IMG/VR virus record: IMGVR_UViG_3300046333_000120 | Length of the DNA: 64,000 nucleotides | From: a virus | Reading direction: 5' to 3' (one strand) | Shown here: positions 23,634 to 54,414 of the stretch, piece by piece | How positions within the stretch are numbered: the stretch's first letter is position 1 | Layout: each line of letters starts with the position of its first letter | Translations under genes and position numbers: made by a program | The notes under the pieces: generated by a model | The model's database searches: none | What the model saw: only the letters and a program-made list of their open reading frames with translations | Told to the model about the DNA's origin: nothing

Positions 23634-25142
23634 TTGATTTTAACATTAACGGAAGACAATCAATTTTTAAGAATTGATGAATCAACTGAACTTGAGTTAG
23701 AGCAGATTAGAATTTCTTTAACAAAACGTATTGACTCTTGGAGATTTAATCCTTTAGTCAAACGAGGTGTGTGGGATGGTTATGTAACATATATTAAAGA
23801 TGATAAATGGATTCCTGCAGGTCTATGGCGATATGTCATGGGAATATGTAAAGACTATAGATTTGAATTAAAAATTAATGGAATCAAACGATTAATAGAT
23901 CCAAATATAAATGCAGAAACATTCGAAACATGGGCATATGGCCTATTTGAAGGTTCTAAGATAACTCCAAGGGATTACCAAGTAGATGCTGCATATAATA
24001 TATTAAAATTTAGAAAGTGTCTTGCTGAACTCGCAACATCAGCAGGTAAGACCCTAATTAGTTTTCTTACAATATCTTATATGCTAGAAAAAGGAACAGC
24101 ATCTAAGATATTATTTATAGTACCAAACGTTTCGCTAGTAGTACAAGCACATGAGGATTTTCATGACTATAACTTTAAAAATAGAATTGACTTAAGAATT
24201 CAACAAATTTTTGCAGGACAAAAGATCAAATCTAATAAGAATATAGTTATTGGTACTTACCAATCGTTAATCAAAAAGGATAAAGAATATTTTGAACAAT
24301 TCGATGCAGTAATTGTAGATGAAACACATAAGGCAAAATCAGCAAGTATTAAAACGATTTTACAAAAATGTACTAATGCTAAATATAGATTTGGTCTTTC
24401 AGGTACAATTCCAAAGGATGGAACTTTAGACAAATTAACATTAATGAGTCAAACTGGTCCTGTAATTGCAGAAGTTAAAGCAAGTTTTTTACAAAAAGAA
24501 GGACACATTGCCAAATGTGCAGTTAAAGTAATTGAAATGGATTATGCAACTGACAAGCAAAAAACAGCATTAATGGAATTAGCTCAAAATAAATATGAGA
24601 ATAAAGATGTATTTGCACTAGAACAAAACTTTGTTATAAATAATGCAGCACGACTTGATTTTATTTCAAATGTAATAGGTAGAGTACCAAAGAATAGTTT
24701 AGTACTTTTTCATAGAATAGAGCATGGTCAAAGGCTTTATGAAAAACTTAGGCAAGAAACTAATAAGAGAGTATTTTATGTAGACGGTGGAACTGCAACT
24801 GATATTAGAGAGGAATACAAAAAGAAAATGGAATCCGGAGAAGAAATTGTTATTGTTGCAAGTTATGGAACCTTTTCAACAGGTATATCAATTAAGAAAA
24901 TTCATAATATATTTTTTACAGAATCTTTTAAATCTGAAGTGATAATTAGACAATCAATTGGACGTGGACTTAGACAACATGAATCAAAGGACAAGGTATT
25001 AATTGTAGATTTTGTGGATAATATTAGAACAGTAGAATGGGATAATTATTTGTATAGACATGGCAAAGCAAGACAAGCAATATACAAACAAGAGAAATTT
25101 GAATACACCATAAAGAAAGTCAATTTTGAAGGAGATATATAA
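23634..25142 (+). CDS. uvsW: SF2 DNA helicase UvsW
   Basis: 'PRDYQ', 'ATSAGKT', 'VDETH', 'GLSGT', 'QSIGRGLR'; TTG start. Confidence 0.9.
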   Translation: MILTLTEDNQFLRIDESTELELEQIRISLTKRIDSWRFNPLVKRGVWDGYVTYIKDDKWIPAGLWRYVMGICKDYRFELKINGIKRLIDPNINAETFETWAYGLFEGSKITPRDYQVDAAYNILKFRKCLAELATSAGKTLISFLTISYMLEKGTASKILFIVPNVSLVVQAHEDFHDYNFKNRIDLRIQQIFAGQKIKSNKNIVIGTYQSLIKKDKEYFEQFDAVIVDETHKAKSASIKTILQKCTNAKYRFGLSGTIPKDGTLDKLTLMSQTGPVIAEVKASFLQKEGHIAKCAVKVIEMDYATDKQKTALMELAQNKYENKDVFALEQNFVINNAARLDFISNVIGRVPKNSLVLFHRIEHGQRLYEKLRQETNKRVFYVDGGTATDIREEYKKKMESGEEIVIVASYGTFSTGISIKKIHNIFFTESFKSEVIIRQSIGRGLRQHESKDKVLIVDFVDNIRTVEWDNYLYRHGKARQAIYKQEKFEYTIKKVNFEGDI

Positions 25143-25174: not shown

Positions 25175-27124
25175 ATGGCAGAAGTTAATAGAATCTCATC
25201 ATTTAAAAGTTTTTCAGAGATTAAATCTCAAGAAAATGAAACTAAATTAAGAGAAGAAAACAATCTAAAGAAACAAGAAACACTATCTAAAATTGAAGAA
25301 ATTTTAGATGAGATGGGATTAACAAATCTATCTGAAATCGATGAAGATTCTCAGACAGCTTTCATATCTAAATTGTTAGGTAAAGAAACGAATGAAGGTA
25401 ATGCATTTGTATATGCTGCAGGTAAAGCTAAGGCAGATGGGAAAAAAGAATTTGAATTTAATGGTAAAACTTATAAAGTAACTATTAAAGACACTGGCAT
25501 CAAAGAAGATAATGAGATTATCGATGAAGCAATTAGCAGAAGTATATATGATAGAATGGATGGACTTCACAATATTAAAGCTATGAAATCTTTAATTGAT
25601 TCTGCGAAGACTATCTTTGATGATTTATCTGAAGAAATGTTTGAATTTGATGAAATCTGTGATTTCATTGTAATGAAAATAAAGAAAAGTAAATTAGCAG
25701 GAATGTATGAATCTGTAAATGAAGCAAGAATTAAAGCTCCTACTGCACTTCAAGAAATTATTGATGGCAATACATCAAGAGCTGAAGGTATTAAATTATC
25801 AAAACCAATGGCTGAACATATATTGAATTGGATTAATACATCAGCGTATGGTAAAAAGTATGGCAAAGATTTACCGTTAAACATGGTTATTAAGGCTTCA
25901 TTTAGTTGGGGTATTGAAAGAGGTTTAGATCCTAAATTGAAATCTGAATTAGATACATTAAAAGATAGTATTAAAGAATCTGTAATCAATGAAGCCAAAG
26001 TTAAGCAATTTGATGCTGACTTTAATGACATGGTTAAAAATATCAAATCAGGTTATGGTTGGATTGATCCAGAATATGTCGCAGATACTTGGGAAAATTC
26101 AAGTGACTCTGTTGATTTTGAATTAGTTAAAGGAGAAATCTACAAAAGATTAATTGCAGCAGGTTTATTAGCATATCCAAATCCAGATGATGAAGAAAAG
26201 AAAGGTGTGCCTGTTAGAAAATTGCAAGAACTTGGTATTAAAGAATCTATTACAAACGAAGCAACTGTTGAAGTAGATGCAACAGATCCTAAAGATAAAA
26301 ACCTTGCAAAACTATTAAAGAAACATAAAGTTTCGTTGGAAGTAATCAATAAAAATGGACCATCCGGATGGCCTGAAGTTAAATTAACAGGAGATATTAA
26401 AGATCTTAAAGCAGTTTTAGCAGATTCTGAATATGGATGGGATGATGAAGGCTTAGCAGATTATATTGAAGAATCAGTAGTTAATGAAGCTGAGAAATTT
26501 AAAAGTACTAAAGACTTTGAAGATTTCTTAGAAGAAATTGATGGTATGCCAGAGAACAGAATCAAAAGAATCATGGGTAAAGATTATATCGATACTCCAG
26601 GTGGATATAGAGATGAAGCTGATGATTATGATAACGATATTACAGAATACATGATTTCTAACATGGGTAAATCTGATTTTAATGAACTTAAAACATGGTG
26701 GGAAACCAATGTTGCTGAATCATTTATTAGTGAATCAAGTATGGGAGAAATCGATCAAATGGCACAAGATGCTAAAGATTTCAAATCATTTGTAAAAGAA
26801 TTTACAAAAAAATACCATGATTTATCCAATACAGGAGAACCTGGACAATTTAAAGAATGGTTACAATCTGCTTATGATGCAGCAAAAGAAAACATGGATG
26901 AATCATCAGTTACTGAAGCTGAAGTTAGTTCTGATGATGAATTTAAAGAATATGCAATGGCTGTTTTGAAAAAAGCATTTGGAGAAGACTTTGATGAAGC
27001 TAAGGCTGGTGAAGTAGTTGATGGAATTCTTAAAAAATGTGATGGAGACTATGGCGCATGTGTTGGAATGCTAACAAGTTCTCTTGGAGAATCGAATGAT
27101 ACCACATCATCTCAAGAATCTTAA
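25175..27124 (+). CDS. Putative internal head polyprotein, 649 aa
   Basis: Late motif at 25134-42; eight linkers ending xxE|A/G/S, mostly ES-x(1-3)-(N/S/T)E, divide it into about nine modules. Confidence 0.55.
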   Translation: MAEVNRISSFKSFSEIKSQENETKLREENNLKKQETLSKIEEILDEMGLTNLSEIDEDSQTAFISKLLGKETNEGNAFVYAAGKAKADGKKEFEFNGKTYKVTIKDTGIKEDNEIIDEAISRSIYDRMDGLHNIKAMKSLIDSAKTIFDDLSEEMFEFDEICDFIVMKIKKSKLAGMYESVNEARIKAPTALQEIIDGNTSRAEGIKLSKPMAEHILNWINTSAYGKKYGKDLPLNMVIKASFSWGIERGLDPKLKSELDTLKDSIKESVINEAKVKQFDADFNDMVKNIKSGYGWIDPEYVADTWENSSDSVDFELVKGEIYKRLIAAGLLAYPNPDDEEKKGVPVRKLQELGIKESITNEATVEVDATDPKDKNLAKLLKKHKVSLEVINKNGPSGWPEVKLTGDIKDLKAVLADSEYGWDDEGLADYIEESVVNEAEKFKSTKDFEDFLEEIDGMPENRIKRIMGKDYIDTPGGYRDEADDYDNDITEYMISNMGKSDFNELKTWWETNVAESFISESSMGEIDQMAQDAKDFKSFVKEFTKKYHDLSNTGEPGQFKEWLQSAYDAAKENMDESSVTEAEVSSDDEFKEYAMAVLKKAFGEDFDEAKAGEVVDGILKKCDGDYGACVGMLTSSLGESNDTTSSQES

Positions 27125-27140
27125 AATAATTTGAATAAAT

Positions 27141-27176
27141 AATATGACCTGGATTTTTTCTAGGTCATATTTTTTT
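27141..27176 (+). terminator. Intrinsic terminator
   Basis: AATATGACCTGGA-ttttt-TCTAGGTCATATT followed by a T tract. Confidence 0.7.
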
Positions 27177-27190
27177 ATTATATTTACAAT

Positions 27191-28477
27191 ATGAAATCAA
27201 AAATCCTTAATTTTAATCAGTTTTTAACTGAAAAATACGAAGTAAGATTAAATGAACAACTCCTATTAGAAGGAGGTGCTGCAGGACATATGTCTCATCC
27301 ATTTGATGAAAGAGACCTTACATTTAGTGACTTTAAGAAAATAATCGAAGCAGGTCTTTCGGGAGATTTAACATTTGAAGAAGATCCAACTGAAAAAACA
27401 GATGGACAGAATGTCTTTGCTACTGTCCAAGATGGTCAAGTTAAATTTGCAAGAAATAAAACTGAACTTAAGAATCCAATGGATCTTAATACATTTAAAC
27501 AGAAATTTACAGGACATCCAAGCAAAATGGTTGAAGAGACATTTCAATTTGCTGCAGAAGATTTAGCACATGCACTTATTAAATTGTCAGCCAAAGATTT
27601 AGAAGCATTTGATAATGGTAAGAATTTCATGAATATGGAGCTTATATATTCTAAGAATCCTAATGTTATTTATTACGATAGAGACATCATACAGTTTCAT
27701 GGGATTAAAATAACTGACGGTGAGGGTAATATTATCGGAGATGATAATAAATATGCTAGATCTATTGCAAAGGCCTTAGAAGATGTCAAGGCACACATAG
27801 GAAAGGTATTTACTATTATTCCTCCACAAATTATCAAGATAGGTAAGGATATAGATTTTAATATTAATAAATCCAAATTTATTAAAAAGGTAGAAGACTT
27901 AAAGAATCGTTATAAATTAACAGATGCCGATGAGGTTTCTAAATATCATGAAATGTGGTGGAGAGAATTAATAGACCAAAATTTCCCAGATTTAACACAG
28001 GATTTTAAAGAAGGTTTATTATTAAGATGGGCATATGATGATAAGAAAACTCTTAATTTAAGAAGTTTAGATAAAGAACTTGGAAAAGATAAAGCAGAAC
28101 TTATTAAGAAGTTTGATAAAGAAGATGTTAAAAAGAAATATAAAGAAAACATTAGACCATTTGAGGATTTATTTCTTGAATTAGGAAGTGTTATCTTAAA
28201 GAATGCAAGTAACTTTGTTGCTGCAAACCCAAAGGCAGAAATGCAAAGATTACATACCCAGATTAGAACAGAAGCTGAAAATATTAAATTGAATGGTGAT
28301 ACTGCTCAAATTGATAAAGTAATGTCAGAGCTTGAAAGACTTGATAGAATTGGAGGTATTGAATCAATTATTCCTACTGAAGGTATTGTATTTGTTTACA
28401 AAGGAAAAACTATGAAACTTACAGGTACATTTGCTGCCATCAATCAATTAATGGGTATCATTAAGTATGGTAGATAA
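27191..28477 (+). CDS. RNA-ligase-fold nucleotidyltransferase (DUF6267-like) with capsid-targeting-like leader
   Basis: Motif I TEKTDG, motif IV EGIVF, motif V MKLTG; leader KILNFNQFLTE; 'LLE|GGAAGHMSHPFD'. Confidence 0.55.
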   Translation: MKSKILNFNQFLTEKYEVRLNEQLLLEGGAAGHMSHPFDERDLTFSDFKKIIEAGLSGDLTFEEDPTEKTDGQNVFATVQDGQVKFARNKTELKNPMDLNTFKQKFTGHPSKMVEETFQFAAEDLAHALIKLSAKDLEAFDNGKNFMNMELIYSKNPNVIYYDRDIIQFHGIKITDGEGNIIGDDNKYARSIAKALEDVKAHIGKVFTIIPPQIIKIGKDIDFNINKSKFIKKVEDLKNRYKLTDADEVSKYHEMWWRELIDQNFPDLTQDFKEGLLLRWAYDDKKTLNLRSLDKELGKDKAELIKKFDKEDVKKKYKENIRPFEDLFLELGSVILKNASNFVAANPKAEMQRLHTQIRTEAENIKLNGDTAQIDKVMSELERLDRIGGIESIIPTEGIVFVYKGKTMKLTGTFAAINQLMGIIKYGR

Positions 28478-28495
28478 ATAAAATAAATAATAGAC

Positions 28496-28813
28496 ATGAA
28501 ATATACACAAGCGTTTGAATCATTTATTAATGAAGCTACTGATAAACCAACTTTAGATTCTTCAACTGGATTAATCTATTACTTCGATATTCCTTTCACA
28601 TCAGAAGATATGGAAGAATTATTAAGTGCAAGTAAAATGGTATTAAATGGAAAATTTACTCCAAATAAACAGTTTGAAATCCAACCGATGATTTTTATTA
28701 AAGATAAAGTTAATGGTGGAGAACATACATTTAGTGTTACACAAATTGGATTATTAGGCTCTTTTTATAATAAGAACAAAGACAGTGTTGCATCTAGATC
28801 AGATTTCAATTAA
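28496..28813 (+). CDS. Small protein with capsid-targeting-like leader
   Basis: Starts MKYTQAFESFINE|A; GATAAATAA at 28473-81. Confidence 0.55.
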   Translation: MKYTQAFESFINEATDKPTLDSSTGLIYYFDIPFTSEDMEELLSASKMVLNGKFTPNKQFEIQPMIFIKDKVNGGEHTFSVTQIGLLGSFYNKNKDSVASRSDFN

Positions 28814-28828
28814 TATAATTTAATAAAA

Positions 28829-30724
28829 ATGGCATTACAAAAATTAAGAGAGTATTTTAACGAAACCAATAGAGAAAATTTTATTGAAATGTTAAAAAGT
28901 AGGGTGTTAGTGACTGAAAAGATTGCAGCACCATCTTTTCTTTTTAAAAGAAATACAGATGGATTTGAGTTTTATAAGTCTTCAACATCAGATAAATTAA
29001 ATTTTATTGATAGAACAGTTATATCACTATATGAAATGGCAATTAATCATTTACAGAGTTTACCAAGCGATGTAAAATCTCAGTTTCCATTAGATTGGAA
29101 ATTTGGATTTGAATATTTACCAGAAACCAAAGCGTCTAATATAGATTATGCCACAACTCCAACCAATAGTTTAATTCTTACACACATTCAACAATTGAGT
29201 GAAGGTGGAAAACTTAGAAAAACTATTAATGATCCATTAATTTTAAATAAATGGGCTAAATTATTAGAAGTGCAATCTCCCAGTGTTATTTTTGATGGTT
29301 ATATGTCACAACAACAAAGAGATGAACTTCTAACCGTATTATCAATGAGTGATAGAGAATTCTCAGATTCATTTGATTACGCAATAGAAACTGAAGATAA
29401 AACAAGTTTCACTTCAAAGATATTTAAGATGTTTAATCCAAATATCTATTCAACTGCACTAAATCCAGATCTTGAAACTGAAATTGATGGATTAGTTATA
29501 AACTTCATAGAAGCAAAAACAATGAAGTCATTTAAACTTGAAGATTTTTTAAGAGCTTCCGCTGATAAAAGAGATTTAAGAGCTTCTAGCCATACTTACC
29601 AAATTGCTGTAACTGATTTCTTAGAGTATATCATACAGCAAGATCTGAACGATATTAATTTAGAAGATGAACATGCCGATCATAGATACTTAGAATTAAT
29701 GTCAGTTTTATTTAATGGATATATTGATAAAAATTCTTCAAAATATATTGGTGTTAATTTTGAAAGTGCAGAATTTTCAGAAGCACAATCATTTAGATTA
29801 AATACCAAATATATTAAAAATGAAAAAACATTAAAATTTGTAAATAATGAAGTACTTGCTGAATTATTTAAAATGGTTTTAAGTTCTTTTAGAAAGAAAA
29901 GAACTAAAGAATCAGACTTAATTGACAAAGATACAATGTCAAGAATGAATGAAATTATTGATGCAATTAATGAAAAGATATTTGTAGAAAATACAGATGA
30001 AAATGCAATATACGATTATACTAATTTTATGTTACATAATAAGATTAAATCTTCAGTAAATTTAAATGAAGCTCTTACAGTAAAACACATGGAACAAGGT
30101 AAACAACCCGTAAATATGTTTGTTGGTAGATTTCAACCATTCACATTAGGGCACGCTAAGGTATTAGAAACAATGAATAAGGAAAATGGATTTCCAGTAG
30201 TTGTATTTTTAGTTAAATCTAAGGTTAAAAAGGGCGAGGAGTTTAGTAAACCATACGATGAAAAAACACAAGTTGATATGTTTAATCATGTCAAAAAACA
30301 ATATCCTTTTTTAAAGGAAATATATGTTGTTCCTAATGCTGCAATCGATACATTATATAATGAGATGAGACCGAAATATGAACCAGTATTATGGGGAACA
30401 GGATCTGATAGAATGAAAGGATATGGATATATGGTTAATAATGATTCTTATAGAGACCAATTAAATGCTAGGGCAGATTTTGGATTATTTGAGATTCCAA
30501 GAACAGACGATAATATTTCAGCAACCAAGGTTAGAAACGCAATGTTAGATGGAAATGAAAAAGATTTTCAGACAATGACACCTAAAGCTATTCATGGAAT
30601 GTATAAAGAATTAAAGTCAAAATTAGAAGATGCTATTGGAGTTGTTCACGAAAATATTGAAAATTCAGAAGAAATCATGACATTTGAACAATTCATAAAT
30701 AAATCTAAATATATAATCTTATAA
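28829..30724 (+). CDS. Fusion of a degenerate ligase-fold domain and an HxGH cytidylyltransferase-like domain
   Basis: N-terminal TEKIAA/DGLVI/FKL; C-terminal GRFQPFTLGH, GSDR, ISATKVR; linker LNE|A; C-terminal MTFEQFIN. Confidence 0.65.
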   Translation: MALQKLREYFNETNRENFIEMLKSRVLVTEKIAAPSFLFKRNTDGFEFYKSSTSDKLNFIDRTVISLYEMAINHLQSLPSDVKSQFPLDWKFGFEYLPETKASNIDYATTPTNSLILTHIQQLSEGGKLRKTINDPLILNKWAKLLEVQSPSVIFDGYMSQQQRDELLTVLSMSDREFSDSFDYAIETEDKTSFTSKIFKMFNPNIYSTALNPDLETEIDGLVINFIEAKTMKSFKLEDFLRASADKRDLRASSHTYQIAVTDFLEYIIQQDLNDINLEDEHADHRYLELMSVLFNGYIDKNSSKYIGVNFESAEFSEAQSFRLNTKYIKNEKTLKFVNNEVLAELFKMVLSSFRKKRTKESDLIDKDTMSRMNEIIDAINEKIFVENTDENAIYDYTNFMLHNKIKSSVNLNEALTVKHMEQGKQPVNMFVGRFQPFTLGHAKVLETMNKENGFPVVVFLVKSKVKKGEEFSKPYDEKTQVDMFNHVKKQYPFLKEIYVVPNAAIDTLYNEMRPKYEPVLWGTGSDRMKGYGYMVNNDSYRDQLNARADFGLFEIPRTDDNISATKVRNAMLDGNEKDFQTMTPKAIHGMYKELKSKLEDAIGVVHENIENSEEIMTFEQFINKSKYIIL

Positions 30725-30740
30725 AATAAAATTAAAATAA

Positions 30741-32849
30741 ATGAGCACATTTGATAAATATCTAAATGACATGAATAATACGTTAAATGAGAGGTCAATT
30801 AACAAAATTCAAGCAGAATTTACAGATGTAGTAACTAAAATGTCAGCAATGGCAAAAGAATATGCTACTACAGAAGGAGATGAAAAAACAAATATTCTTA
30901 CAGAATTAAAAGGATTAACTGCAAAGAAAAATGAGTTAATAAAGGAACTCGATAATGCAGTAGCAGGAAAGGATAAAGATGTCCAATTAGCTATTAAAGA
31001 ATCTGAAATTAATGAAGCATATGGAAGCTCTAATCCTCATGCAAAACCAGCGGGTCTTGATAAAGAAGAAACTATGGTTATAGCTCAAAAATTTGCAGAT
31101 GCAATGTCTAAAGCAGAAGGAGCTAAAGTTACTGTAAATAAAAGAACATTAGAGGAAGATTCATTTGATTTAGATTACAATGGAGAAGAATTTGATGGAG
31201 GTTCATATAACATCTACCAAAATGGAAATGTTATGAATATGGCATTAAGAGATAATCCAGTATATGGTAGAAAAAACGATAGTGTAGATACTATTGCAAA
31301 GAATATGAAAAAATTCATGAGCGAATCAGTAGCTAATGAAGGTAGACATATTACTCTTAAAAGACAATACACTGGAAACCATCCTGCAACCACCGTTGGA
31401 AAAATTGCAGCTGTTAGAAATAAAGTGTTAGAGGCAATTAAAGATGGTAAAATACCACAAGAACAATTTGAAAAAATAGTTTCTGAAATTTCTAATAACT
31501 CTAAAAGATGGACAAAAAATAACTCAAAATATTTTACAATATCAGAAGACGGTGTTTCACTTTCTGGTTTTGGTAAAAAAGTACTTTCAAGTATAACAGT
31601 TAATGAAGCAGATTTTAAAGAATTTCCAAAAGGTTATAATCCAGAAATATGGGTACCTGGTAATTTTGATAAAGCTATTTCCAAATATTCAAATGCAAAA
31701 TTAACTAGAAAAATTGTATTGGATGCTGCTAAAAAATGGGATGTTACACCCGAAGATGCTATTAATTATGTAGAATTTGGATGGCATGTAGATTTATCAG
31801 AAAATATAAATATAAATATAAATATGAAAACAAAATTTATTTACGAATCATTTAGCGAATTCATTGGAGCTTTAAATGAATCTAATGAAATATTAAATGA
31901 AGCATTTGCTTCTACAAAACTTGCAAGTCTTTTAACAGGCGCAAATGCAATGCCAAAGGATCTTCCTGCTGCATTCTATAATATGTCAAAATTAGCTCTT
32001 GACAAAATTCAAGACATTGATATTCTAGAAATGACACCAGATCAAGCAAAGAAAGAAAAAAGAACAAAGGCAATTTATTTATATTTTACAACAAATGAAA
32101 AAGAAAACCCATATGCGGGTAGCCGCTCCGGAGCAGCAAATGCATTAATCCCATCAAACACATTATTAGCTATCACTGATGGTTCTAATGAATGGATGAA
32201 TACTGAATGGACTAGAAAATTTACCAGTAAATCATCAAAAACTTTGAAAACTACAAAAAGAGATGATTCCGCTGGATTTAGTAAATCAGGAGCAAGCGAT
32301 CAATATGGTACTGGTATTTCAAGTATGAAACAAGTTGCTGAACTTGCAGATAGAGCATATTGCTTAGACCTTACCATTTTGCAAGCAAGATATTCTACAC
32401 AAAATCTTAAAGATGAAAGAGATGCTGCAAGAAAAGGTGCTACTGCATTCATGAATGATAAGGAATTTAAAGCTGAAAACAAAGCAAGGTACAATGATAT
32501 TTTAGCAACTAAAGCATCATCAATGCCAATGGATTCTGTAGTTTCAGGTGCTATCGATACTCTTTCTTTACAGATTAAAAACGCAATAGCTAAAGGTGAA
32601 AAAGGAAGATATGGAGATCTTTTAATTGGATTAGATCCACGCGGAAAAGAAGTTAAACTATCAGATGCTTCTAATTTAATGAGAAATATTTTAGATACCT
32701 ATTCAAGATATGTTGGAGATGTTGCTAATGATGAAAAAGAAAAAGCAGCAGGATATACTGGAAATTATTATGCAGGTAGTTTAAAAAACCATGCAAAAGA
32801 TATACAGGACAATGTTAAAAAAATAGATACACTAAGTTACGGTTGGTAA
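30741..32849 (+). CDS. Putative internal head polyprotein, 702 aa
   Basis: Leader MSTFDKYLN; sites TLNE|R, ESEINE|A, ESVANE|G, TVNE|A, ILNE|A; second leader at 31824. Confidence 0.5.
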   Translation: MSTFDKYLNDMNNTLNERSINKIQAEFTDVVTKMSAMAKEYATTEGDEKTNILTELKGLTAKKNELIKELDNAVAGKDKDVQLAIKESEINEAYGSSNPHAKPAGLDKEETMVIAQKFADAMSKAEGAKVTVNKRTLEEDSFDLDYNGEEFDGGSYNIYQNGNVMNMALRDNPVYGRKNDSVDTIAKNMKKFMSESVANEGRHITLKRQYTGNHPATTVGKIAAVRNKVLEAIKDGKIPQEQFEKIVSEISNNSKRWTKNNSKYFTISEDGVSLSGFGKKVLSSITVNEADFKEFPKGYNPEIWVPGNFDKAISKYSNAKLTRKIVLDAAKKWDVTPEDAINYVEFGWHVDLSENINININMKTKFIYESFSEFIGALNESNEILNEAFASTKLASLLTGANAMPKDLPAAFYNMSKLALDKIQDIDILEMTPDQAKKEKRTKAIYLYFTTNEKENPYAGSRSGAANALIPSNTLLAITDGSNEWMNTEWTRKFTSKSSKTLKTTKRDDSAGFSKSGASDQYGTGISSMKQVAELADRAYCLDLTILQARYSTQNLKDERDAARKGATAFMNDKEFKAENKARYNDILATKASSMPMDSVVSGAIDTLSLQIKNAIAKGEKGRYGDLLIGLDPRGKEVKLSDASNLMRNILDTYSRYVGDVANDEKEKAAGYTGNYYAGSLKNHAKDIQDNVKKIDTLSYGW

Positions 32850-32863
32850 AAAATAATAAAATT

Positions 32864-33415
32864 ATGAAACATATTAAATTATATGAAGACTTTTTAATAA
32901 CTGAAAAGGCGTATCAATTAACAGGATCTTATGGTGCAAAGGGTATTATTGGAAAAGTTGCATTTGCATTTAAAAAAGAAGTTGAACGTACTCAATATGA
33001 TGGAAATGTTAAATCAACGATAGATGACTTAAACGATGTATGGTCTATTTGGGCAAATAAAGATGGTTCTAAAATAATTGAAGCTGAAGTAATGAAGCAA
33101 GTTAAAAATAAAGAATCCATTGTTTATATTATGGCTACATTAAATAATTATAAATGGATCGCAGATAAGGTTAATGGAGTAAATAACCCAGAACGGGCAG
33201 AATTATTATCAAGATTTCCTGGAGATTTTGTAATTAATGTGGGATTTGCGGATGATGTAAATGCTAATAAATATTCAAAAAAATTAGGTGGTATGGCAAA
33301 TACTGCACTAGCTTCAAGCGCAGATACTGAAGTTCTAGGAAGATTTGATGCTTCTGTAGGATATAATAATGTTGAAATCAGAGGATCTTTATTTTTAACA
33401 ATAGATGCAAAATAA
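32864..33415 (+). CDS. Protein with capsid-targeting-like leader
   Basis: ATG at 32864 gives MKHIKLYEDFLITE. Confidence 0.55.
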   Translation: MKHIKLYEDFLITEKAYQLTGSYGAKGIIGKVAFAFKKEVERTQYDGNVKSTIDDLNDVWSIWANKDGSKIIEAEVMKQVKNKESIVYIMATLNNYKWIADKVNGVNNPERAELLSRFPGDFVINVGFADDVNANKYSKKLGGMANTALASSADTEVLGRFDASVGYNNVEIRGSLFLTIDAK

Positions 33416-33426
33416 ATAAATAAACA

Positions 33427-33810
33427 ATGAAACACTTTAAACTATTTGAACAATTTGTAAATGAAAATTTAAATCTAAGTTCAGCGGATTTCGCAAAGTA
33501 TATAATAGATACTGTTGCTAAAAAATACCCATGGGCAGAGGTTACCAAACAGGAATTAGGTAGGGCGCCTTACCCAGATTCAATCACATTTGACGGTGCT
33601 GTTGAAATTTATTGGATGGAAGGACCTGATAATCAAACAAACTCTATGATTGGAGTAGTATCTAAAGGAAAATGGCAAAGAAATAGTGATAGACCAACAT
33701 TTGGTCCTGAAATCCAAAAAACCACTAAATGGAATAGACAGGATATTGGGGTAAAAAACTTATTAGCTGCATTAAAGACAAATAGTTCAAATTCACCTGT
33801 AAATAACTAA
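33427..33810 (+). CDS. Protein with capsid-targeting-like leader
   Basis: Starts MKHFKLFEQFVNE. Confidence 0.55.
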   Translation: MKHFKLFEQFVNENLNLSSADFAKYIIDTVAKKYPWAEVTKQELGRAPYPDSITFDGAVEIYWMEGPDNQTNSMIGVVSKGKWQRNSDRPTFGPEIQKTTKWNRQDIGVKNLLAALKTNSSNSPVNN

Positions 33811-33812
33811 TC

Positions 33813-34178
33813 ATGCCAAGTACTAGTATAGCGCAACAGCATCTAATGGGTATGGCATATTCTCTTAAAAAAGGAGAAATGGATCCTAAAGATGCAAGTC
33901 AAGAAGTAAAGGATCTTTCAGATTCTATGACACTTCAACAATTAAAGGATTTTGCAAGTACAAAACATGAAGGACTTCCAAAGAAGGCAGATGAAGGAGT
34001 TTCTTCTGAAAGCATTGGAGGTATGGGAGCGACTTTATTGCCTACTGCAACTCAACCAGGATCTGGGGATGTTCTATCAGGGGCAGGTGATGCAGAAGAG
34101 GAATACAAGAAAAAGAAAAGAAAGCGAGAAGGTATGTTAAAAACCTTTGAACAGTTTATAAATGAACAATATAATTAA
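33813..34178 (+). CDS. DUF3008-like protein with a C-terminal targeting-like motif
   Basis: 'MPSTSIAQQ...KKGE...SMT..QLKDFASTKHEGLP' fits the DUF3008 pattern; ends MLKTFEQFINE. Confidence 0.6.
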   Translation: MPSTSIAQQHLMGMAYSLKKGEMDPKDASQEVKDLSDSMTLQQLKDFASTKHEGLPKKADEGVSSESIGGMGATLLPTATQPGSGDVLSGAGDAEEEYKKKKRKREGMLKTFEQFINEQYN

Positions 34179-34598: not shown

Positions 34599-36023
34599 AT
34601 GAAATTTGTAGACGCTTTAAGACAAGAAGACATTTTAACAGAAAATGGAATGGCAACAAATTCAACTTCGTTGAATGCATGCGTTGATTTATTCTTTAAT
34701 ATTGGTGCAATGCGAGGTCAAGATAAACAACGTTTACTTGCAACTTTCTCTAAAGCTTTCAATGAAGACCCTAAGCGTGCTATGAAACTTTTGTTTTGGG
34801 CAAGAGATGTTAGAGGTGGAGCAGGAGAACGCCAGATATTTAAGGATATTTTAGTTTATTTAGCTGAAAATCACGATTTGGCTTTAAAACCAAATTTAGA
34901 TTTAATTGCAGAGTATGGTCGTTTTGATGATTTATTATCTTTATTAGGAACTTATTTAGAAAATGATGCTTTACGAATTATATCAGATGCACTTAACACT
35001 GAAAATGGATTATGTGCAAAATGGATGCCTCGTAAGGGTCAAAATGCAGAAAAAATCCGTGCATTCTTAAAATTATCACCAAAACAGTATCGTAAAACTT
35101 TAGTTAATTTAACGAATGTTGTTGAAACTAAAATGTGTGCTAAAGAATGGGACACTATTGATTTTGGTAAATTACCATCAGTAGCTTCTGCAAGATATCA
35201 AAAAGCTTTTGGTAAAAATGCATACACAAGTTACTCTGCTTATATAGAATCCCTTGTAAAGGGAGAAGCTAAAATAAATGCAGGTGCTATTTATCCTTAT
35301 GATGTTACTAAGTCATTAACACATGGTAATGCAAAGGTAGCAAACGAACAATGGAAAGCCCTTCCAAATTATCTAGAAGGTGCAAACGATATGATTTTAC
35401 CAGTAGTGGATGTTTCAGGTTCAATGTCATCTCCAGCAGGTGGTAGTAAAACTGTAACTTGTATGGATGTTGCTATCTCTTTGGGTCTTTATATTTCTGA
35501 AAGAAATGAAGGTGCTTTTAAGGATGCTTTTATTACATTCTCAAGTAATCCACAACTACAATTATTAAGTGGTTCATTAAGTGAGCGTTATGCACAAATG
35601 TCAAATGCAGATTGGGGAATGTCTACAAATCTGGAGTCAACCTTTAAATTAATTTTAAATCAAGCGACTAAACATAATTTATCTCAAGCTGAAATGCCAA
35701 ATAAAATTCTAATATTATCAGATATGGAATTTAATCAAGCAACTTCAACTGGTTGGAGAAATGAAGCATCATGGAACCCAACAGCTCAACAAGTAATTAA
35801 CGACATGTATGAGTCTTCAGGTTACAAAATGCCTCAAATTGTTTATTGGAACATTCAATCCAGAAATGGAGGAGTACCAGTTGCATTTGATACAGCAGGA
35901 ACTGCATTAATTTCAGGATTCTCTCCAGCAATTATGACAAGCTTACTTGGAGGAGATATTGAATCTCCACAGCAAATCATGGATAAAACAATTTTGAGTG
36001 AGAGATACGCTCCAATTGTTTAA
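34599..36023 (+). CDS. DUF2828/TROVE (Ro60-like) protein with C-terminal vWA domain
   Basis: 'TENGMAT', 'LLFWARDVRGGAGER', 'CAKWMPR', MIDAS 'VVDVSGSM', 'ILSDMEF', 'VYWN', 'ISGFSP'. Confidence 0.75.
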   Translation: MKFVDALRQEDILTENGMATNSTSLNACVDLFFNIGAMRGQDKQRLLATFSKAFNEDPKRAMKLLFWARDVRGGAGERQIFKDILVYLAENHDLALKPNLDLIAEYGRFDDLLSLLGTYLENDALRIISDALNTENGLCAKWMPRKGQNAEKIRAFLKLSPKQYRKTLVNLTNVVETKMCAKEWDTIDFGKLPSVASARYQKAFGKNAYTSYSAYIESLVKGEAKINAGAIYPYDVTKSLTHGNAKVANEQWKALPNYLEGANDMILPVVDVSGSMSSPAGGSKTVTCMDVAISLGLYISERNEGAFKDAFITFSSNPQLQLLSGSLSERYAQMSNADWGMSTNLESTFKLILNQATKHNLSQAEMPNKILILSDMEFNQATSTGWRNEASWNPTAQQVINDMYESSGYKMPQIVYWNIQSRNGGVPVAFDTAGTALISGFSPAIMTSLLGGDIESPQQIMDKTILSERYAPIV

Positions 36024-37831: not shown

Positions 37832-38299
37832 ATGGCAAATATAGATAACGAATGTAAAGACCTGGAAGTTAATGACTTCTACAATGAATCAACAACCCAC
37901 TTAGCGGATATTATGGAAAACCAAAAGAAGATGCAAGAGCAGACTTATGGTTTTAATTTTGAAGATATGACGCTTAGAGAGATTATGAACTTTTGGCATG
38001 TTAATACACATGCAGTAATTGATGAAATTCACGAGATGACTGATGCATTAGGAGGTATTAAAGACGGTAGTGGAAATGCAGTATGGAAATATTGGAAAAA
38101 AGACTTTGCCAAATACGAAACCTTAAAAATTAGTGACCTATCAGAAGGTGATAAAAAGGAATTGTATATGGAATGGGTCGACATCATGCACTTCTTTATA
38201 AATTATGCAGCGTCTATTGGGCTAGATGCAAAAACTGCATACAATTATTACTTTGCAAAAGCAGAGGCAAATGTTCAACGTCAGAAAAACAACTATTAA
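37832..38299 (+). CDS. All-alpha dCTPase/dUTPase (T4 gp56-like)
   Basis: 'DEIHEMTDALG', 'WKYWKK', 'MEWVDIMHFF', 'NVQRQKNNY'. Confidence 0.8.
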   Translation: MANIDNECKDLEVNDFYNESTTHLADIMENQKKMQEQTYGFNFEDMTLREIMNFWHVNTHAVIDEIHEMTDALGGIKDGSGNAVWKYWKKDFAKYETLKISDLSEGDKKELYMEWVDIMHFFINYAASIGLDAKTAYNYYFAKAEANVQRQKNNY

Positions 38300-39696
38300 T
38301 GATATTAGATATCGAGCAAAGAGAAAAGGATATCATCATATCCTATTATAATGACAAAGGTGAAGTAGCATTTAAACAATATCCTATTGACAAATTCCAA
38401 AATTGGTATGTGTGTGACGACAAAGATAAAGCAGCAAGTACACAATTTAAAAATTGGGATGGTCGTAAAGTTAAACTAGGATATGGTAGACAATTTAATA
38501 AGTTTTCAATTCTTTACTTTTTAGATTCTCTTTCTGAGAAAGATAAAAAAGAATTGACAGCATACAATATGCCAAAGACTTACTTCGTCGATATCGAAAC
38601 TGAAATTGTTGATGGCTTTCCAAAGGCAGAAGAAGCTAAAAGTAGAATTCTTTCCTTTTCAATTATTACACCAGAACGTAAAGCAATCGTATTAGGTCTT
38701 GAAGACATGGATTCAGATAGTATTAAAAAAATACAAGATGATACCAATGAATATTTCAAAGATTTTGACCAAGATTGGGAATTTAAATATTATAAATTTA
38801 AATCCGAATATGATATGGTATACACATTCTTAATGAAGTTCCTACCTAAATTCCCAATGATGACAGGTTGGAACTTTATAAACTATGACTGGCAATATAT
38901 CGTAAATCGATGCAAAAGATTACAAATTGATATTAGTGAAGTTAGTATGACAAAGGAGGTTGATAAATCTGATAGTAGACCTCTTCATATTGGAATTCTA
39001 GATTACATGCAATTATATGATAAGTATGATAGAAGTGTTAAGGTAAAAGAATCTAATTCTCTTGATTATGTTTCAAGTCAAGTATTAAAGGTTAATAAGA
39101 TTAAATTCACTGGATCTTTACAAGATCTTTACAGAGATAATTTTACAAAGTATATTTACTACAATGTAGTCGATTCTGTATTGGTTTATTATATTGACCA
39201 AAAACTAAAATCAATGGAAGTACTTTTAACACTTGCAAATATCACAAACATGCCATTATATAAGGCAAGTTCTCCTGTGGCAGTTACAGAAGCTATTATG
39301 GCCAGAAAACTCGCAGAACAAGGAATGAGAATTGGCAGTGAGGAAAAGAAAGATTCTAACAAAGATGGTCAATATGCAGGTGCATTTGTAAAAGAACCAA
39401 TACTTGGATTTTATGAAGGTGTAAGTGCATTCGATTTTGCTTCCCTATATCCTTCAATCATGAGGCAGTTTAATATTTCACCAGATGCATATATTGAAAA
39501 AATAAGTAAAAGCGAAATTGCTGAACGAAGAAAGGATAAAGACATAATTGTATGTGACAATGGAGTTGTATATAATAATGAAGATTCTATTCTCAGAAAA
39601 ATATTAAGTGACTTATATGAACAACGTAAAGATTACAAAAAAACATCGTATGAATACTATTCAAAGGCAGATCATTTAAAAAAAATGCTCAAATAA
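38299..39696 (+). CDS. Family B DNA polymerase, N-terminal half (exonuclease, motif A)
   Basis: ExoI DIETE, ExoII GWNFINYDW, ExoIII YNVVD, motif A DFASLYPSIM; ends within the fingers; TAATG coupling gives ATG at 38299. Confidence 0.9.
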   Translation: MILDIEQREKDIIISYYNDKGEVAFKQYPIDKFQNWYVCDDKDKAASTQFKNWDGRKVKLGYGRQFNKFSILYFLDSLSEKDKKELTAYNMPKTYFVDIETEIVDGFPKAEEAKSRILSFSIITPERKAIVLGLEDMDSDSIKKIQDDTNEYFKDFDQDWEFKYYKFKSEYDMVYTFLMKFLPKFPMMTGWNFINYDWQYIVNRCKRLQIDISEVSMTKEVDKSDSRPLHIGILDYMQLYDKYDRSVKVKESNSLDYVSSQVLKVNKIKFTGSLQDLYRDNFTKYIYYNVVDSVLVYYIDQKLKSMEVLLTLANITNMPLYKASSPVAVTEAIMARKLAEQGMRIGSEEKKDSNKDGQYAGAFVKEPILGFYEGVSAFDFASLYPSIMRQFNISPDAYIEKISKSEIAERRKDKDIIVCDNGVVYNNEDSILRKILSDLYEQRKDYKKTSYEYYSKADHLKKMLK

Positions 39697-40740: not shown

Positions 40741-40791
40741 ATTCAAATGATTGAGATATATAAACTATAAAAATATCTTAATCAAATGAAT
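40741..40791 (+). promoter_or_regulatory. Late promoter inside a hairpin that occludes the HNH start codon
   Basis: TGATTGAGATAT (40748-59) pairs with ATATCTTAATCA (40773-84); ATTCA pairs with TGAAT across the ATG; GATATATAA at 40755-63. Confidence 0.7.
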
Positions 40792-41607
40792 TGGACAATC
40801 ATATATAAAAACCTAATAGATAATGCAATCTTAGAAAAAAGAACTAAAAGTACTGAAATATATTATGAAAATCATCATATTGTTCCAAAACACATGGGAG
40901 GTGATAATTCTAATAATAATTTAGTACTTTTAACATTTAGAGAGCATGTATTAGCACACTATTTATTATGGAGAATCCATGGATATGAAGGTGATAAATT
41001 AATGTATTCTCTTAGAAATCTTCAAACAGAAGAAGCTCAAAGATTAAGAGTTAAACTAGCAGTTGAGGCAAATAGAAATGGAGGTAAAGGATTTAGACTA
41101 TGGGATGGTGATAAAAATCCAATGAAAGATCCATTAAAGGTTAAGCAAGCATTAGAAAGTAAGAGAGAAAAGTACGATGGTGGTGTAATGTCGATGGAAG
41201 CCAAGAAACAATGGCTTCCTAAAATTAAGATGAGAATGCAAGAAATGGCAAAGGACCCTGAAATACAAGAAAAACGTTCTAAAACTATTAAACAAATTAA
41301 TGCAACCCTAACTCCGGAAGAATTTGCACTAAAATATAATAATGCTGGTAAAAATAATGGAAATTATGGTTGGATTAAAGGGTATTATGATGTAATTGAC
41401 CCTGATGGAAATGTTACAAAATATGAAAGTCAAGAGAACATTATAAAGGAGTTAAATATATCTCAATCATTTTTAGTTAGGAATAGAAACAAAGGAGTTT
41501 TATTCACAAAACCAAAGAAAAATGCCGGACAATGGAACGGATGGACTTTTAATTACTTTAAACTTCCATGTCCAACTACTGGTAGAATACAAAAAGAACA
41601 CAAATAA
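40786..41607 (+). mobile_element. Free-standing HNH homing endonuclease (MobE-like position)
   Basis: 'ENHHIVPKHMGGDNSNNNLVLLTFREHVLAH'; sits between nrdB and nrdA. Confidence 0.8.
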
Positions 41608-45201: not shown

Positions 45202-46398
45202 ATGACAATAGATGAATTAATACTAAAGCCAGAGAGTGATCTGACACAGGAAGAGATTAAAATCTTGGTAGAGCATTATTCAACGTTGTCTGCCAAATAT
45301 ACTGCATATGAGCAGGCGGTTAAGGTAATGCTTAACTCAATCTATGGAGCATTTGGTAATAAATGGTTTCACTTTTTCAATATAGATATCGCAGAATCTA
45401 TTACCCTACAGGGTCAATCTGCGATTCTATATTCTGAAAAGATTCTTAATAAGTATTTTCAAGAATTCTGGCATAAAGATACTGCAGTACATGAATTTCT
45501 TAATATCCAAGTAAAGAATAAAATAGTAAGACCATCTGTTGTTTATATCGATACCGATTCATGTTATGTACAATTTGAAGAAATGTATGAATCTATTGAG
45601 TGGTTAGAAACTAAACTAACAATTGATGATTTCATTATGAAAATATACAACTTCAGACTTAAAGAGTATATTTTTAAATGCATGGAAAAATATGCAGCAG
45701 CAACAAATACTGAGAATTTCCTTACATTTGAACTTGAAACCATAGCATACTCAGGTATTTGGTTAGCCAAGAAAAAGTATTTACAAAACATTGCATGGGA
45801 AGATAAAATAGGAATTGATGAAAGATATCCATCTCTTAAAAAGATTAAAACAATCGGGTATGACACAATTCAAAGTTCTACTCCTGCAATTGCGCGCAAA
45901 CACTTAACAGAAGCATTAAAATTAATTCTTTCAGAAAAACCGACAGCATCTTTGTTAAAAAGACTTGTTGATTATTTAAAACAATGTAAGAAGGAATTTC
46001 AATTAGCAAGTGTTGATGAAATATGCTTTAATAAGAGAACAAATAATATTGAAAAATATATCGTAGATGATACAATAGAATTCCAGTATGGTCTTAAGTG
46101 TCCTCCTAATGTAAAGGCTGCAGGGTTTTATAACTTCTTAATGAATACTAATCCAAAGTATAAAAACAAGTACAAAATGATTGGTAATGGTGAGAAGTTA
46201 AAATTGTATCACTGTAAACATAATGTTTGTGAAATATTTGCATATCAACCAGGCGCACATCCTTATGAAATAGCTCCTCCGATAGATTATGAATTGCAAT
46301 TTGAAAAAAGTGTAATAGATCCATTAAACAGAGTATTAGTTGCAGTAGGGTTACATTCATTAAATAGAAACTTAATTTATTCAACATCATTATTTTAA
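45202..46398 (+). CDS. Family B DNA polymerase, C-terminal half (motifs B and C, thumb)
   Basis: KVMLNSIYGAFG, ITLQGQ, YIDTDS, AKKKY; C-terminal 'STSLF' resembles a clamp-binding peptide. Confidence 0.9.
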   Translation: MTIDELILKPESDLTQEEIKILVEHYSTLSAKYTAYEQAVKVMLNSIYGAFGNKWFHFFNIDIAESITLQGQSAILYSEKILNKYFQEFWHKDTAVHEFLNIQVKNKIVRPSVVYIDTDSCYVQFEEMYESIEWLETKLTIDDFIMKIYNFRLKEYIFKCMEKYAAATNTENFLTFELETIAYSGIWLAKKKYLQNIAWEDKIGIDERYPSLKKIKTIGYDTIQSSTPAIARKHLTEALKLILSEKPTASLLKRLVDYLKQCKKEFQLASVDEICFNKRTNNIEKYIVDDTIEFQYGLKCPPNVKAAGFYNFLMNTNPKYKNKYKMIGNGEKLKLYHCKHNVCEIFAYQPGAHPYEIAPPIDYELQFEKSVIDPLNRVLVAVGLHSLNRNLIYSTSLF

Positions 46399-53652: not shown

Positions 53653-54414
53653 ATGACAACTAACATTCTTGCACCATTCGCAAAAGTAGAAGAGTCTTTT
53701 CAATTTTATGTAAATGGAAGAGTCTTTGAAATGAATAACAATGAAATTAAGGAAGTTGAAGTTTTAACTAACTCAACACTAATCAATGCTATTAATGCAT
53801 TTGAATCTTTTGAATTTTCTAATGATTCTATTAAATGGTTCCATGGACCAAGTAAATTTATTTACAATTTAATAGAAAGTAAATTCCAACATAACACTAT
53901 GTTAATTGAAGGAAGCACATTCTCAAATCATGTTTTAGCAGCAGGATTGGTAAGATATAATGAAAAAGCAAAGGCTGATTTATTTGAATCTATTCCATCA
54001 TTACTTGAAAATTTTGTAAATTTAGATTTTGCAGCATCATTCAAAGGAAATAATATTAATGTAGAATTATTTAAAATTGAAGAATCTATATTTGTTGCTC
54101 GTCTTAATAATGAAACAAGAATTTCTAAATTCTTTAAGGCTGTAAATGCAAATGAAGCATTAGAGTATGTAATGAATGAAACTGGTGAATCAGCACATTC
54201 TTTCTTAAAATCTTTATTAGAAGGAGAAGAAGCTGGTATTGCTGAAAAACAAGAAAAAATTGAAACCTACGAATCAATGATTGCTTTCTTAAAAGACCAA
54301 AAAGGTTTATTATCTGAGTCAGATAGAAATCATGAGATAATTAAAGAAGCTGAAGGGTTAATTAATACTGAAATTAAAGAATGGGAATCTAAAATTGCAG
54401 ATTTAAATGCATAA
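53653..54414 (+). CDS. Hypothetical late protein, 253 aa
   Basis: Late motif at 53622-30; C-terminal coiled coil. Confidence 0.5.
   Translation: MTTNILAPFAKVEESFQFYVNGRVFEMNNNEIKEVEVLTNSTLINAINAFESFEFSNDSIKWFHGPSKFIYNLIESKFQHNTMLIEGSTFSNHVLAAGLVRYNEKAKADLFESIPSLLENFVNLDFAASFKGNNINVELFKIEESIFVARLNNETRISKFFKAVNANEALEYVMNETGESAHSFLKSLLEGEEAGIAEKQEKIETYESMIAFLKDQKGLLSESDRNHEIIKEAEGLINTEIKEWESKIADLNA

Follow-up and report, generated by a model that had tools for sequence, protein, structure and literature searches.

Exchangeable small protein modules chained in one gene of an uncultured T4-like phage: a candidate head-targeted, protease-cut cargo polyprotein

Why would a tailed phage encode nine unrelated small protein modules in a single gene, joined by a peptide that resembles the cut site of a head protease? 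The question is raised by an open reading frame in a 64,000-nucleotide stretch of viral DNA (IMG/VR record IMGVR_UViG_3300046333_000120), which is called the window in the following. An initial annotation had described the encoded protein as beads on a string that are carried into the head, released by the prohead protease and injected. The reading that is favored here, with a probability of about 0.7, is that of a cargo polyprotein of the T4 internal-protein type, which would be targeted to the head and cut by a protease, and the cassettes of which would be shuffled at the linkers. The chain would probably be packaged in the capsid and be cleaved into individual small proteins. The gene and its modules are listed below; the arrow marks the predicted point of cleavage, and pLDDT is the predicted local distance difference test score of AlphaFold2 (AF2) models.

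25175-27124, plus strand: polyprotein gene (P0001), a single open frame of 649 amino acids (aa) with nine modules
25175-25396, plus strand: M1, residues 1-74, conserved N-terminal module and candidate head-targeting module, ends with T-N-E↓G
25397-25528, plus strand: M2, residues 75-118, small unit with a beta-hairpin, ends with I-D-E↓A
25529-25723, plus strand: M3, residues 119-183, ends with E-S-V-N-E↓A, AF2 prediction poor
25724-25993, plus strand: M4, residues 184-273, helical, the sole basic module (isoelectric point 8.9), ends with E-S-V-I-N-E↓A, pLDDT 70-87
25994-26260, plus strand: M5, residues 274-362, three helices and a hairpin, ends with E-S-I-T-N-E↓A, pLDDT 83-88 in the whole-protein model
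26261-26488, plus strand: M6, residues 363-438, ends with E-S-V-V-N-E↓A
26489-26734, plus strand: M7, residues 439-520, very acidic (net charge -12), ends with E-S-F-I-S-E↓S
26735-26917, plus strand: M8, residues 521-581, ends with E-S-S-V-T-E↓A
26918-27121, plus strand: M9, residues 582-649, helical with two cysteines, near-universal cargo module, pLDDT 77-90

Eight linkers, with the glutamate at position P1 being residue 74, 118, 183, 273, 362, 438, 520, and 581, divide the protein into nine segments of 74, 44, 65, 90, 89, 76, 82, 61, and 68 aa. All eight linkers of the initial annotation are thus present, and the spacing of 44-90 aa agrees with the 45-90 aa given there. The pattern ES.{1,3}[NTS]E[AGS] occurs six times in the protein, compared to an expectation of 0.08 +/- 0.28 from 5000 shuffles of the protein, none of which reached six, and the looser pattern [ILVFMT]xE[AGS] occurs 16 times versus 4.7 +/- 2.1 in shuffled proteins. 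When the nine segments were compared all-against-all with BLASTP, similarity was confined to the last approximately ten residues, that is, to the linkers, and the sequences between the linkers are mutually unrelated, as had been stated before. The reported similarity of the linker DNA was also recovered: the sequence GAATC(A/T)...(A/T)..AATGAAGC is common to the linkers. The linker serine codon is TCN in 33 of 34 linkers versus 76% in the remainder of these genes (Fisher p 0.0025), a bias that is suggestive only because the loci are related.

The modules have sizes of 5-10 kDa and are mostly acidic, with isoelectric points of 4.1-5.3 and M4 as the exception. If they are independent domains, as had been expected, no fold should span the linkers. 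The AF2 model of the whole protein, for which a 32-sequence alignment of colinear homologs was used, has a predicted template modeling score (pTM) of 0.27, which argues against a global fold, and no single compact fold extends across the linkers. M4, M5, and M9 were modeled confidently as separate small domains (pLDDT 70-90), and the regions with a pLDDT below 50 (residues 267-274, 357-371, 421-446, 509-530, and 574-580) are the linkers. M5 modeled alone is a compact domain of three helices and a hairpin, with a pTM of 0.61. The models therefore support independent globular domains that are joined by disordered linkers.

Searches with the whole protein and with each module against Pfam and PHROG retrieved only phrog_5922 for M6 (an 85-aa phage protein of no known function; E 2.8e-7) and a weak match of M1 to phrog_5053, and neither the whole protein nor any single module showed a peptidase or effector domain in these searches. 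Searching the modules singly, as had been advised, thus yielded a family for M6, but no functional assignment. A sequence search of the PDB gave no match for the polyprotein, a search of the ESM Atlas gave no usable match, and a Foldseek comparison of the whole model with PDB and BFVD gave nothing significant, just local matches to phage proteins of 79-88 aa. For M5 alone, the best hits, among them the RecX repeat and sigma 1.1, had a VIA Z of 5, and Foldseek returned nothing; the fold searches thus did not go beyond common small helical arrangements, and none of these searches is informative. A precursor with multiple cores, as known for ribosomally synthesized and post-translationally modified peptides, was also considered and rejected, since the modules are folded domains of 44-90 aa and modifying enzymes are not encoded nearby.

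What, then, are the linkers? M4, M5, and M7 also occur in shorter homologs, either alone or in proteins of two to three modules. These proteins open with M-K-x(3-4)-F-E-x-F-(L/I/V)-N-E and then A or G, and the first residue of the module is the same as that after the linker in the polyprotein. Examples with such a targeting-type leader are P0190 and P0132 for M4, P0226, P0238, and P0221 (93-102 aa) for M5, and P0176 and P0146 for M7, and a 238-kb relative (L005) contains a tandem array of small genes that each start with this leader. It aligns position for position with the leader of T4 IPII and IPIII, which was read from AF158101 as M-K-T-Y-Q-E-F-I-A-E, then A. Residues 4 and 7 of the T4 targeting sequence direct capsid targeting, residues 8 and 10 direct processing, and gp21 cleaves after L/I-x-E (PMC9026906). 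Numbered back from the cut, these four residues are P7, P4, P3, and P1. An exchange of Glu for Asp at P1 prevents processing in T4, but leaves targeting intact. At 25 leader boundaries of the family, Phe is present at P7 in 44% and at P4 in 44%, L/I/V at P3 in 88%, and E at P1 in 92%. A set of 309 unique internal boundaries, which were delimited by homology rather than by the motif, has V/L/I at P3 in 87%, E at P1 in 95%, and A/G at P1' in 90%, and P7 and P4 are not aromatic. By this alignment, the linkers are targeting leaders that have kept the cut site and lost the address, which fits a chain that needs only one address. By analogy, the address of the chain is most likely M1 with its invariant F10-x-x-F13. 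The invariant residues of M1 cluster within residues 1-17, and the spacing of the two phenylalanines is that of Y4 and F7 in the T4 sequence.

The presumed processing enzyme is encoded further downstream.

58048-59796, plus strand: prohead protease (S77, gp21-type) with a scaffold-like C-terminal part

Its N-terminal 160 residues match Peptidase_S77 (Pfam PF03420, E 4e-12), and a tblastn comparison with the T4 head maturation protease showed 30.7% identity over residues 22-132. Three candidate sites in this protein are kept in 51-56 of 58 distinct relatives, namely RVNE↓S at the end of the protease domain, SYNE↓G within the scaffold-like region, and (V/I)-(N/K)-E↓(S/A) at a distance of 26 residues from the C-terminus. 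No such conservation was seen for FINE↓G and KKNE↓G. The xNE pattern that had been pointed out in the capsid and protease-scaffold proteins is thus present, and RVNE↓S is conserved, but FINE↓G is not, and neither is LINE↓S of the capsid protein, the glutamate of which is lost in 20 of 79 relatives. The better candidate for the capsid cut site is P-I-I-E↓S at residues 16-20, which is invariant in these 79 relatives. The capsid protein (59968-61368) has no long N-terminal delta domain, and the position of the invariant site leads to a predicted propeptide of only about 19 aa; the T4 capsid propeptide has 65 aa. The scaffold-like part of about 420 aa contains tandem Y-S-E-H-I-A-E-like repeats with an L/I/V-A-E site in each, which has the same P3-P1 as the T4 leader; by its sequence, this is how a scaffold that is cut into pieces would be expected to look. 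A 253-aa protein without assigned family (53653-54414), encoded between a gp15-like gene and the head genes, exceeds all others of the window in its density of hydrophobic-x-E↓small sites (39.5 per 1000 aa) and is possibly a component of the prohead core.

These sites are relevant for the question whether the chain is cut at all. The repeated peptide might be a flexible linker that was inherited together with the cassettes, in a multidomain protein that stays in one piece outside or inside the virion, and the serine codon bias would fit linkers that are possibly conserved as copies of one DNA repeat. However, the high conservation of P1 and P3 in the 309 contexts goes along with variation at neighboring positions, the linker boundary is the end of the T4-type N-terminal leader in the stand-alone homologs, and the motif fits the specificity of the encoded protease family and recurs at the conserved sites of the protease-scaffold protein. 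An uncut chain is therefore regarded as distinctly unlikely.

The distribution of the modules was followed in a large family. A word-index search retrieved, in addition to more than 638 relatives of similar length, 209 proteins that are shorter and seven that are longer (1137-1226 aa), none of the latter with a Pfam domain. A form of 643 aa (P0003-P0006) is among the relatives retrieved. An exhaustive HMMER search yielded 1,052 homolog clusters at 50% identity, which match in 1-8 separate stretches, the ends of which follow the module borders. The nine modules were placed on 120 homologs. M1 is the first module in 119 of them, M2 follows M1 in 119 with 1-4 tandem copies (its upstream boundary has the P1 glutamate in 222 of 222 cases), and M9 is found near the C-terminus in 119. 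The occurrence of M3 to M8 ranges from 3 to 106 homologs, with M3 present in 32, M4 in 106, and M8, the rare one, in three long homologs. The module order is unlike that of P0001 in 38 of the 120, because M5 and M7 have exchanged places or because M6 stands behind M9 or in second place; the position of M6 thus varies between before M9, after M9, and second in the chain. The smallest family members consist of M1 and two copies of M9 (P0140). Clustering of 1,421 segments from 240 proteins, with the linkers stripped, resulted in about 147 families, including 85 singletons, and the nine modules of P0001 fall into nine different families. The homologs are therefore not invariantly colinear, but vary in module presence, copy number, and order.

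This variation is embedded in a constant gene order. In relatives, the locus consists of gp32, primase, a 72-aa gene, UvsY, UvsW, the polyprotein, a 428-442 aa protein, a nucleotidyltransferase, and a second polyprotein, which is also present in the window.

30741-32849, plus strand: second gene for a polyprotein (702 aa), linkers as in the first one, five NE↓(A/G/S) sites, exchanges modules with the first gene

The first polyprotein has 584-1029 aa and the second 688-982 aa in the relatives, and the flanking genes keep their length, so that, judged from these comparisons, the polyprotein gene stands out as hypervariable in an otherwise conserved locus. The contig L008, which has flanks that are 98% identical to the window, differs only by insertions and deletions of whole modules; M7 is missing, with the deletion junction within the shared linker sequence, and three of four junctions of these insertions and deletions have 11-25 nucleotides (nt) of overlapping homology. 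The M7 of the window is present, with 89% nt identity, inside the second polyprotein gene of another contig (L009), so that cassettes are exchanged between these genes. The view, put forward in the initial annotation, that the linkers serve as recombination points is supported by the junctions that lie within the linker repeat and by the presence of a module in a different gene.

The mosaic structure also bears on the role of the fragments. The chain could be loaded and cut in the prohead and nevertheless be an accessory component of the core or scaffold, with fragments that aid assembly and are expelled or inert instead of acting as effectors. In the prohead, T4 gp22, gp67, and gp68 are cleaved into small peptides at many, densely spaced L/I-x-E sites (PMC9026906). 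The polyprotein has 24.7 hydrophobic-x-E↓small sites per 1000 aa, a density that equals that of the protease-scaffold protein (22.3 per 1000 aa), and M1, M2, and M9 are near-universal, as a structural role predicts. However, gp22, gp67, and gp68 are conserved assembly proteins, and a scaffold or core protein should be conserved, colinear, and coiled-coil. In contrast, the gene described here is mosaic in order and content, most modules are dispensable, shuffled, and hypervariable even between phages with 98% identity, and the modules are modeled as independent globular domains and not as coiled coils. Furthermore, modules exist as separate leader-tagged genes like the T4 internal proteins, and a scaffold is already present, fused to the protease. 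Therefore, it seems unlikely that the chain is an accessory core component.

The source phage is an uncultured aquatic relative of T4 with 30% G+C, and all genes of the window are on the plus strand. The head genes encode a T4-type portal, the S77 prohead protease with its fused scaffold-like part, and a gp23-type capsid protein. Directly 5' of the polyprotein gene are gp32, primase, UvsY, and UvsW, and further genes of the window encode a split family-B DNA polymerase, ribonucleotide reductase, UvsX, gp41, gp46/47, and gp2. The two polymerase genes (38173-39696 and 45202-46398) are separated by about 5.5 kb, which contain the ribonucleotide reductase genes and a homing endonuclease gene (40786-41607). 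A Ro60-like gene (DUF2828 / phrog_850; 34599-36023) lies 3' of the cargo locus. The closest GenBank record is that of an uncultured 462-kb phage (LR756500), with 51% identity of the capsid protein and 68% of the protease, and there is no close cultured relative; the searches also turned up no virion proteome of a relative. A related capsid gene is present on 576 IMG/VR contigs, and a tblastn search with the polyprotein against 50,697 GenBank phage records yielded no match.

Since the gene adjoins the replication genes for UvsW, UvsY, and primase, it might encode a true polyprotein that is cut in the cytoplasm by another Glu-specific protease of the host or the phage, as a means to express many small proteins that are not part of the virion. 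However, no other protease was seen in the locus, the logos of leader and linker match the T4 rules for head targeting and gp21 cleavage, and proteases of the gp21 type act inside the prohead (PMC9026906). Cytoplasmic processing is thus very improbable.

The DNA in front of the gene contains a further element.

25134-25142, plus strand: promoter-like motif GATATATAA, 32 nt upstream of the polyprotein start codon

The motif GATATATAA occurs 13 times in the window, always on the plus strand and upstream of genes, compared to 3.1 expected occurrences (13 were reached in 0 of 100 shuffles); example sites are 6966, 25134, 52772, 58015, 59847, and 61463. It is also found upstream of the protease, capsid, and gp15-like genes and of the genes at 53653 and 61507. 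The intergenic DNA 5' of the polyprotein gene is conserved in relatives. We infer that GATATATAA is a promoter, which would be consistent with co-expression of the polyprotein with the head genes; it is no proof, because some non-structural genes carry the motif, too. The T4 late promoter TATAAATA was tried as control element and discarded, as it is not enriched (15 occurrences versus 19 expected).

For the favored head-cargo polyprotein, the following course of events can be proposed. M1 would dock the chain via its invariant F-x-x-F core on the scaffold core of the assembling prohead, and the gp21-type serine protease in the prohead would cut after the glutamate of each (V/I/L)-(N/T)-E↓(A/G/S) linker. 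Eight or nine proteins of 5-10 kDa, mostly acidic, would be released, would stay in the head, and would exit with the DNA at infection. Each linker would be a capsid-targeting leader reduced to its processing half, and thus a single targeting signal would load many cargoes in equal numbers. Because all linkers have about 20 nt of DNA in common, modules could be added, dropped, rearranged, and transferred from one polyprotein gene to the other at these sites. The protease-released head cargo of the initial annotation has gained from this analysis, through the modules that start at the same residue behind T4-type leaders and through the protease of the S77/gp21 type.

Several points weigh against this interpretation. 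The phage is uncultured, its nearest GenBank relative is as distant as 51% capsid identity, and the support comes from comparison. The polyprotein gene sits amid replication genes, about 30 kb away from the head genes, and the putative promoter motif is also present in front of some non-structural genes. The F10-x-x-F13 core of M1 is invariant, but it is not directly followed by a canonical cut site, the first one being at residue 74, and the targeting role of M1 is assigned by analogy. The acidic modules contrast with the basic IPII and IPIII of T4, and none of the modules was given a function by Pfam, PHROG, PDB, or fold searches. In addition, two of the motif occurrences that had been cited, LINE↓S of the capsid protein and FINE↓G of the scaffold, are not conserved.

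The closest known parallel is provided by IPI, IPII, IPIII, and Alt of T4. The likeness comprises the layout of the leader on stand-alone homologs and neighboring genes (aromatic residues at P7 and P4, L/I/V at P3, Glu at P1, and a small residue at P1'), the S77 protease family, small and diverse cargoes, a hypervariable locus, and the inferred route from the scaffold core via cleavage to ejection with the DNA. However, T4 has one leader and one cargo per gene, whereas up to about a dozen cargoes are chained here behind a single N-terminal module, and the internal linkers keep the processing half only. P2 is strongly Asn/Thr and an E-S pair is present at P6-P5, unlike in the T4 leader, and the mostly acidic modules have no sequence similarity to IPI-III. 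Polyvalent proteins also combine many domains, which are presumed to be delivered with the invading DNA and to be processed into separate units (Iyer, Burroughs, Aravind 2017; PMC5512222). The polyprotein resembles them in having several unrelated domains in one polypeptide, here nine mutually unrelated, separately folding modules. Polyvalent proteins, however, bring along a peptidase domain, usually a zincin-like metallopeptidase, together with recognizable enzyme or anti-restriction domains (PMC5512222), none of which was found here; instead, the prohead protease would act in trans, with a stereotyped linker as its cut site. In the giant phages phiKZ, 201phi2-1, and SPN3US, a gp21-related prohead protease cuts head proteins after the Glu of short motifs, sometimes at several sites of the same protein (PMC10052503, PMC9026906). 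There, the additional cuts fragment one long N-terminal propeptide and leave one mature protein, while each segment is a separate folded and exchangeable module here, and the cut motif is A/S/G-x-E in the giant phages versus V/I/L-N/T-E here. A literature search retrieved no description of a targeting-sequence polyprotein in tailed phages, which is weak evidence as most subscription journals were outside the search.

The surroundings of the gene are of interest in their own right, because the region 25175-34178 looks like an internal-protein locus. At least eight genes of the window have a leader-like start (19105, 19410, 27191, 28496, 32864, 33427, 57638, and 61507) of the form M-K...F/Y-x-x-F/Y...E, one of which is the following.

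28496-28813, plus strand: leader-bearing gene of 105 aa, the first 13 residues of which are a T4-type capsid-targeting leader that ends with I-N-E↓A

The 428-aa protein encoded at 27191-28477, which is without family match, has a leader-like N-terminus, and so does the 631-aa protein at 28829-30724, which contains a cytidylyltransferase-like domain with an L-N-E↓A site in front of it. Enzymes may be packaged, too. At about 31805-31824, the second polyprotein gene contains an in-frame (AATATA)n run with three overlapping matches to TATAAATA, which is read through as N-I repeats and is followed by an in-frame Met and a targeting-type leader that ends with L-N-E↓S. The site has the appearance of an old gene junction at which read-through has led to a fusion. 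Sequence searches of the PDB with the 428-aa and the 702-aa proteins gave nothing significant.

If the chain is indeed packaged and cut as proposed, it would represent a polyprotein way to load the capsid of a tailed phage, in which a multitude of unrelated cargoes would be delivered at a fixed ratio by one targeting signal, with the protease-site linkers doubling as cassette borders. A wider proposal is more tentative and has somewhat less in its favor than against it. It says that the dual-purpose linker, as head-protease cut site and recombination repeat of about 20 nt, underlies a system like exon shuffling in abundant aquatic T4-like phages, with at least 60 recurrent module families, and that the resulting sets of small proteins, which change continually, are packaged together in equal numbers behind one signal and injected against host defenses. 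The favored reading would in any case imply that uncultured aquatic phages, which are widespread, hold a large reservoir of small and probably injected proteins that is still untouched; its size is indicated by the 1,052 clusters and the approximately 147 module families in only 240 sampled proteins. The modules would be natural candidates for anti-defense or host-takeover factors, and each of them would be a ready-made unit for expression and screening. The favored reading would also suggest that the T4 targeting-sequence packaging method of biotechnology could carry multi-cargo chains.

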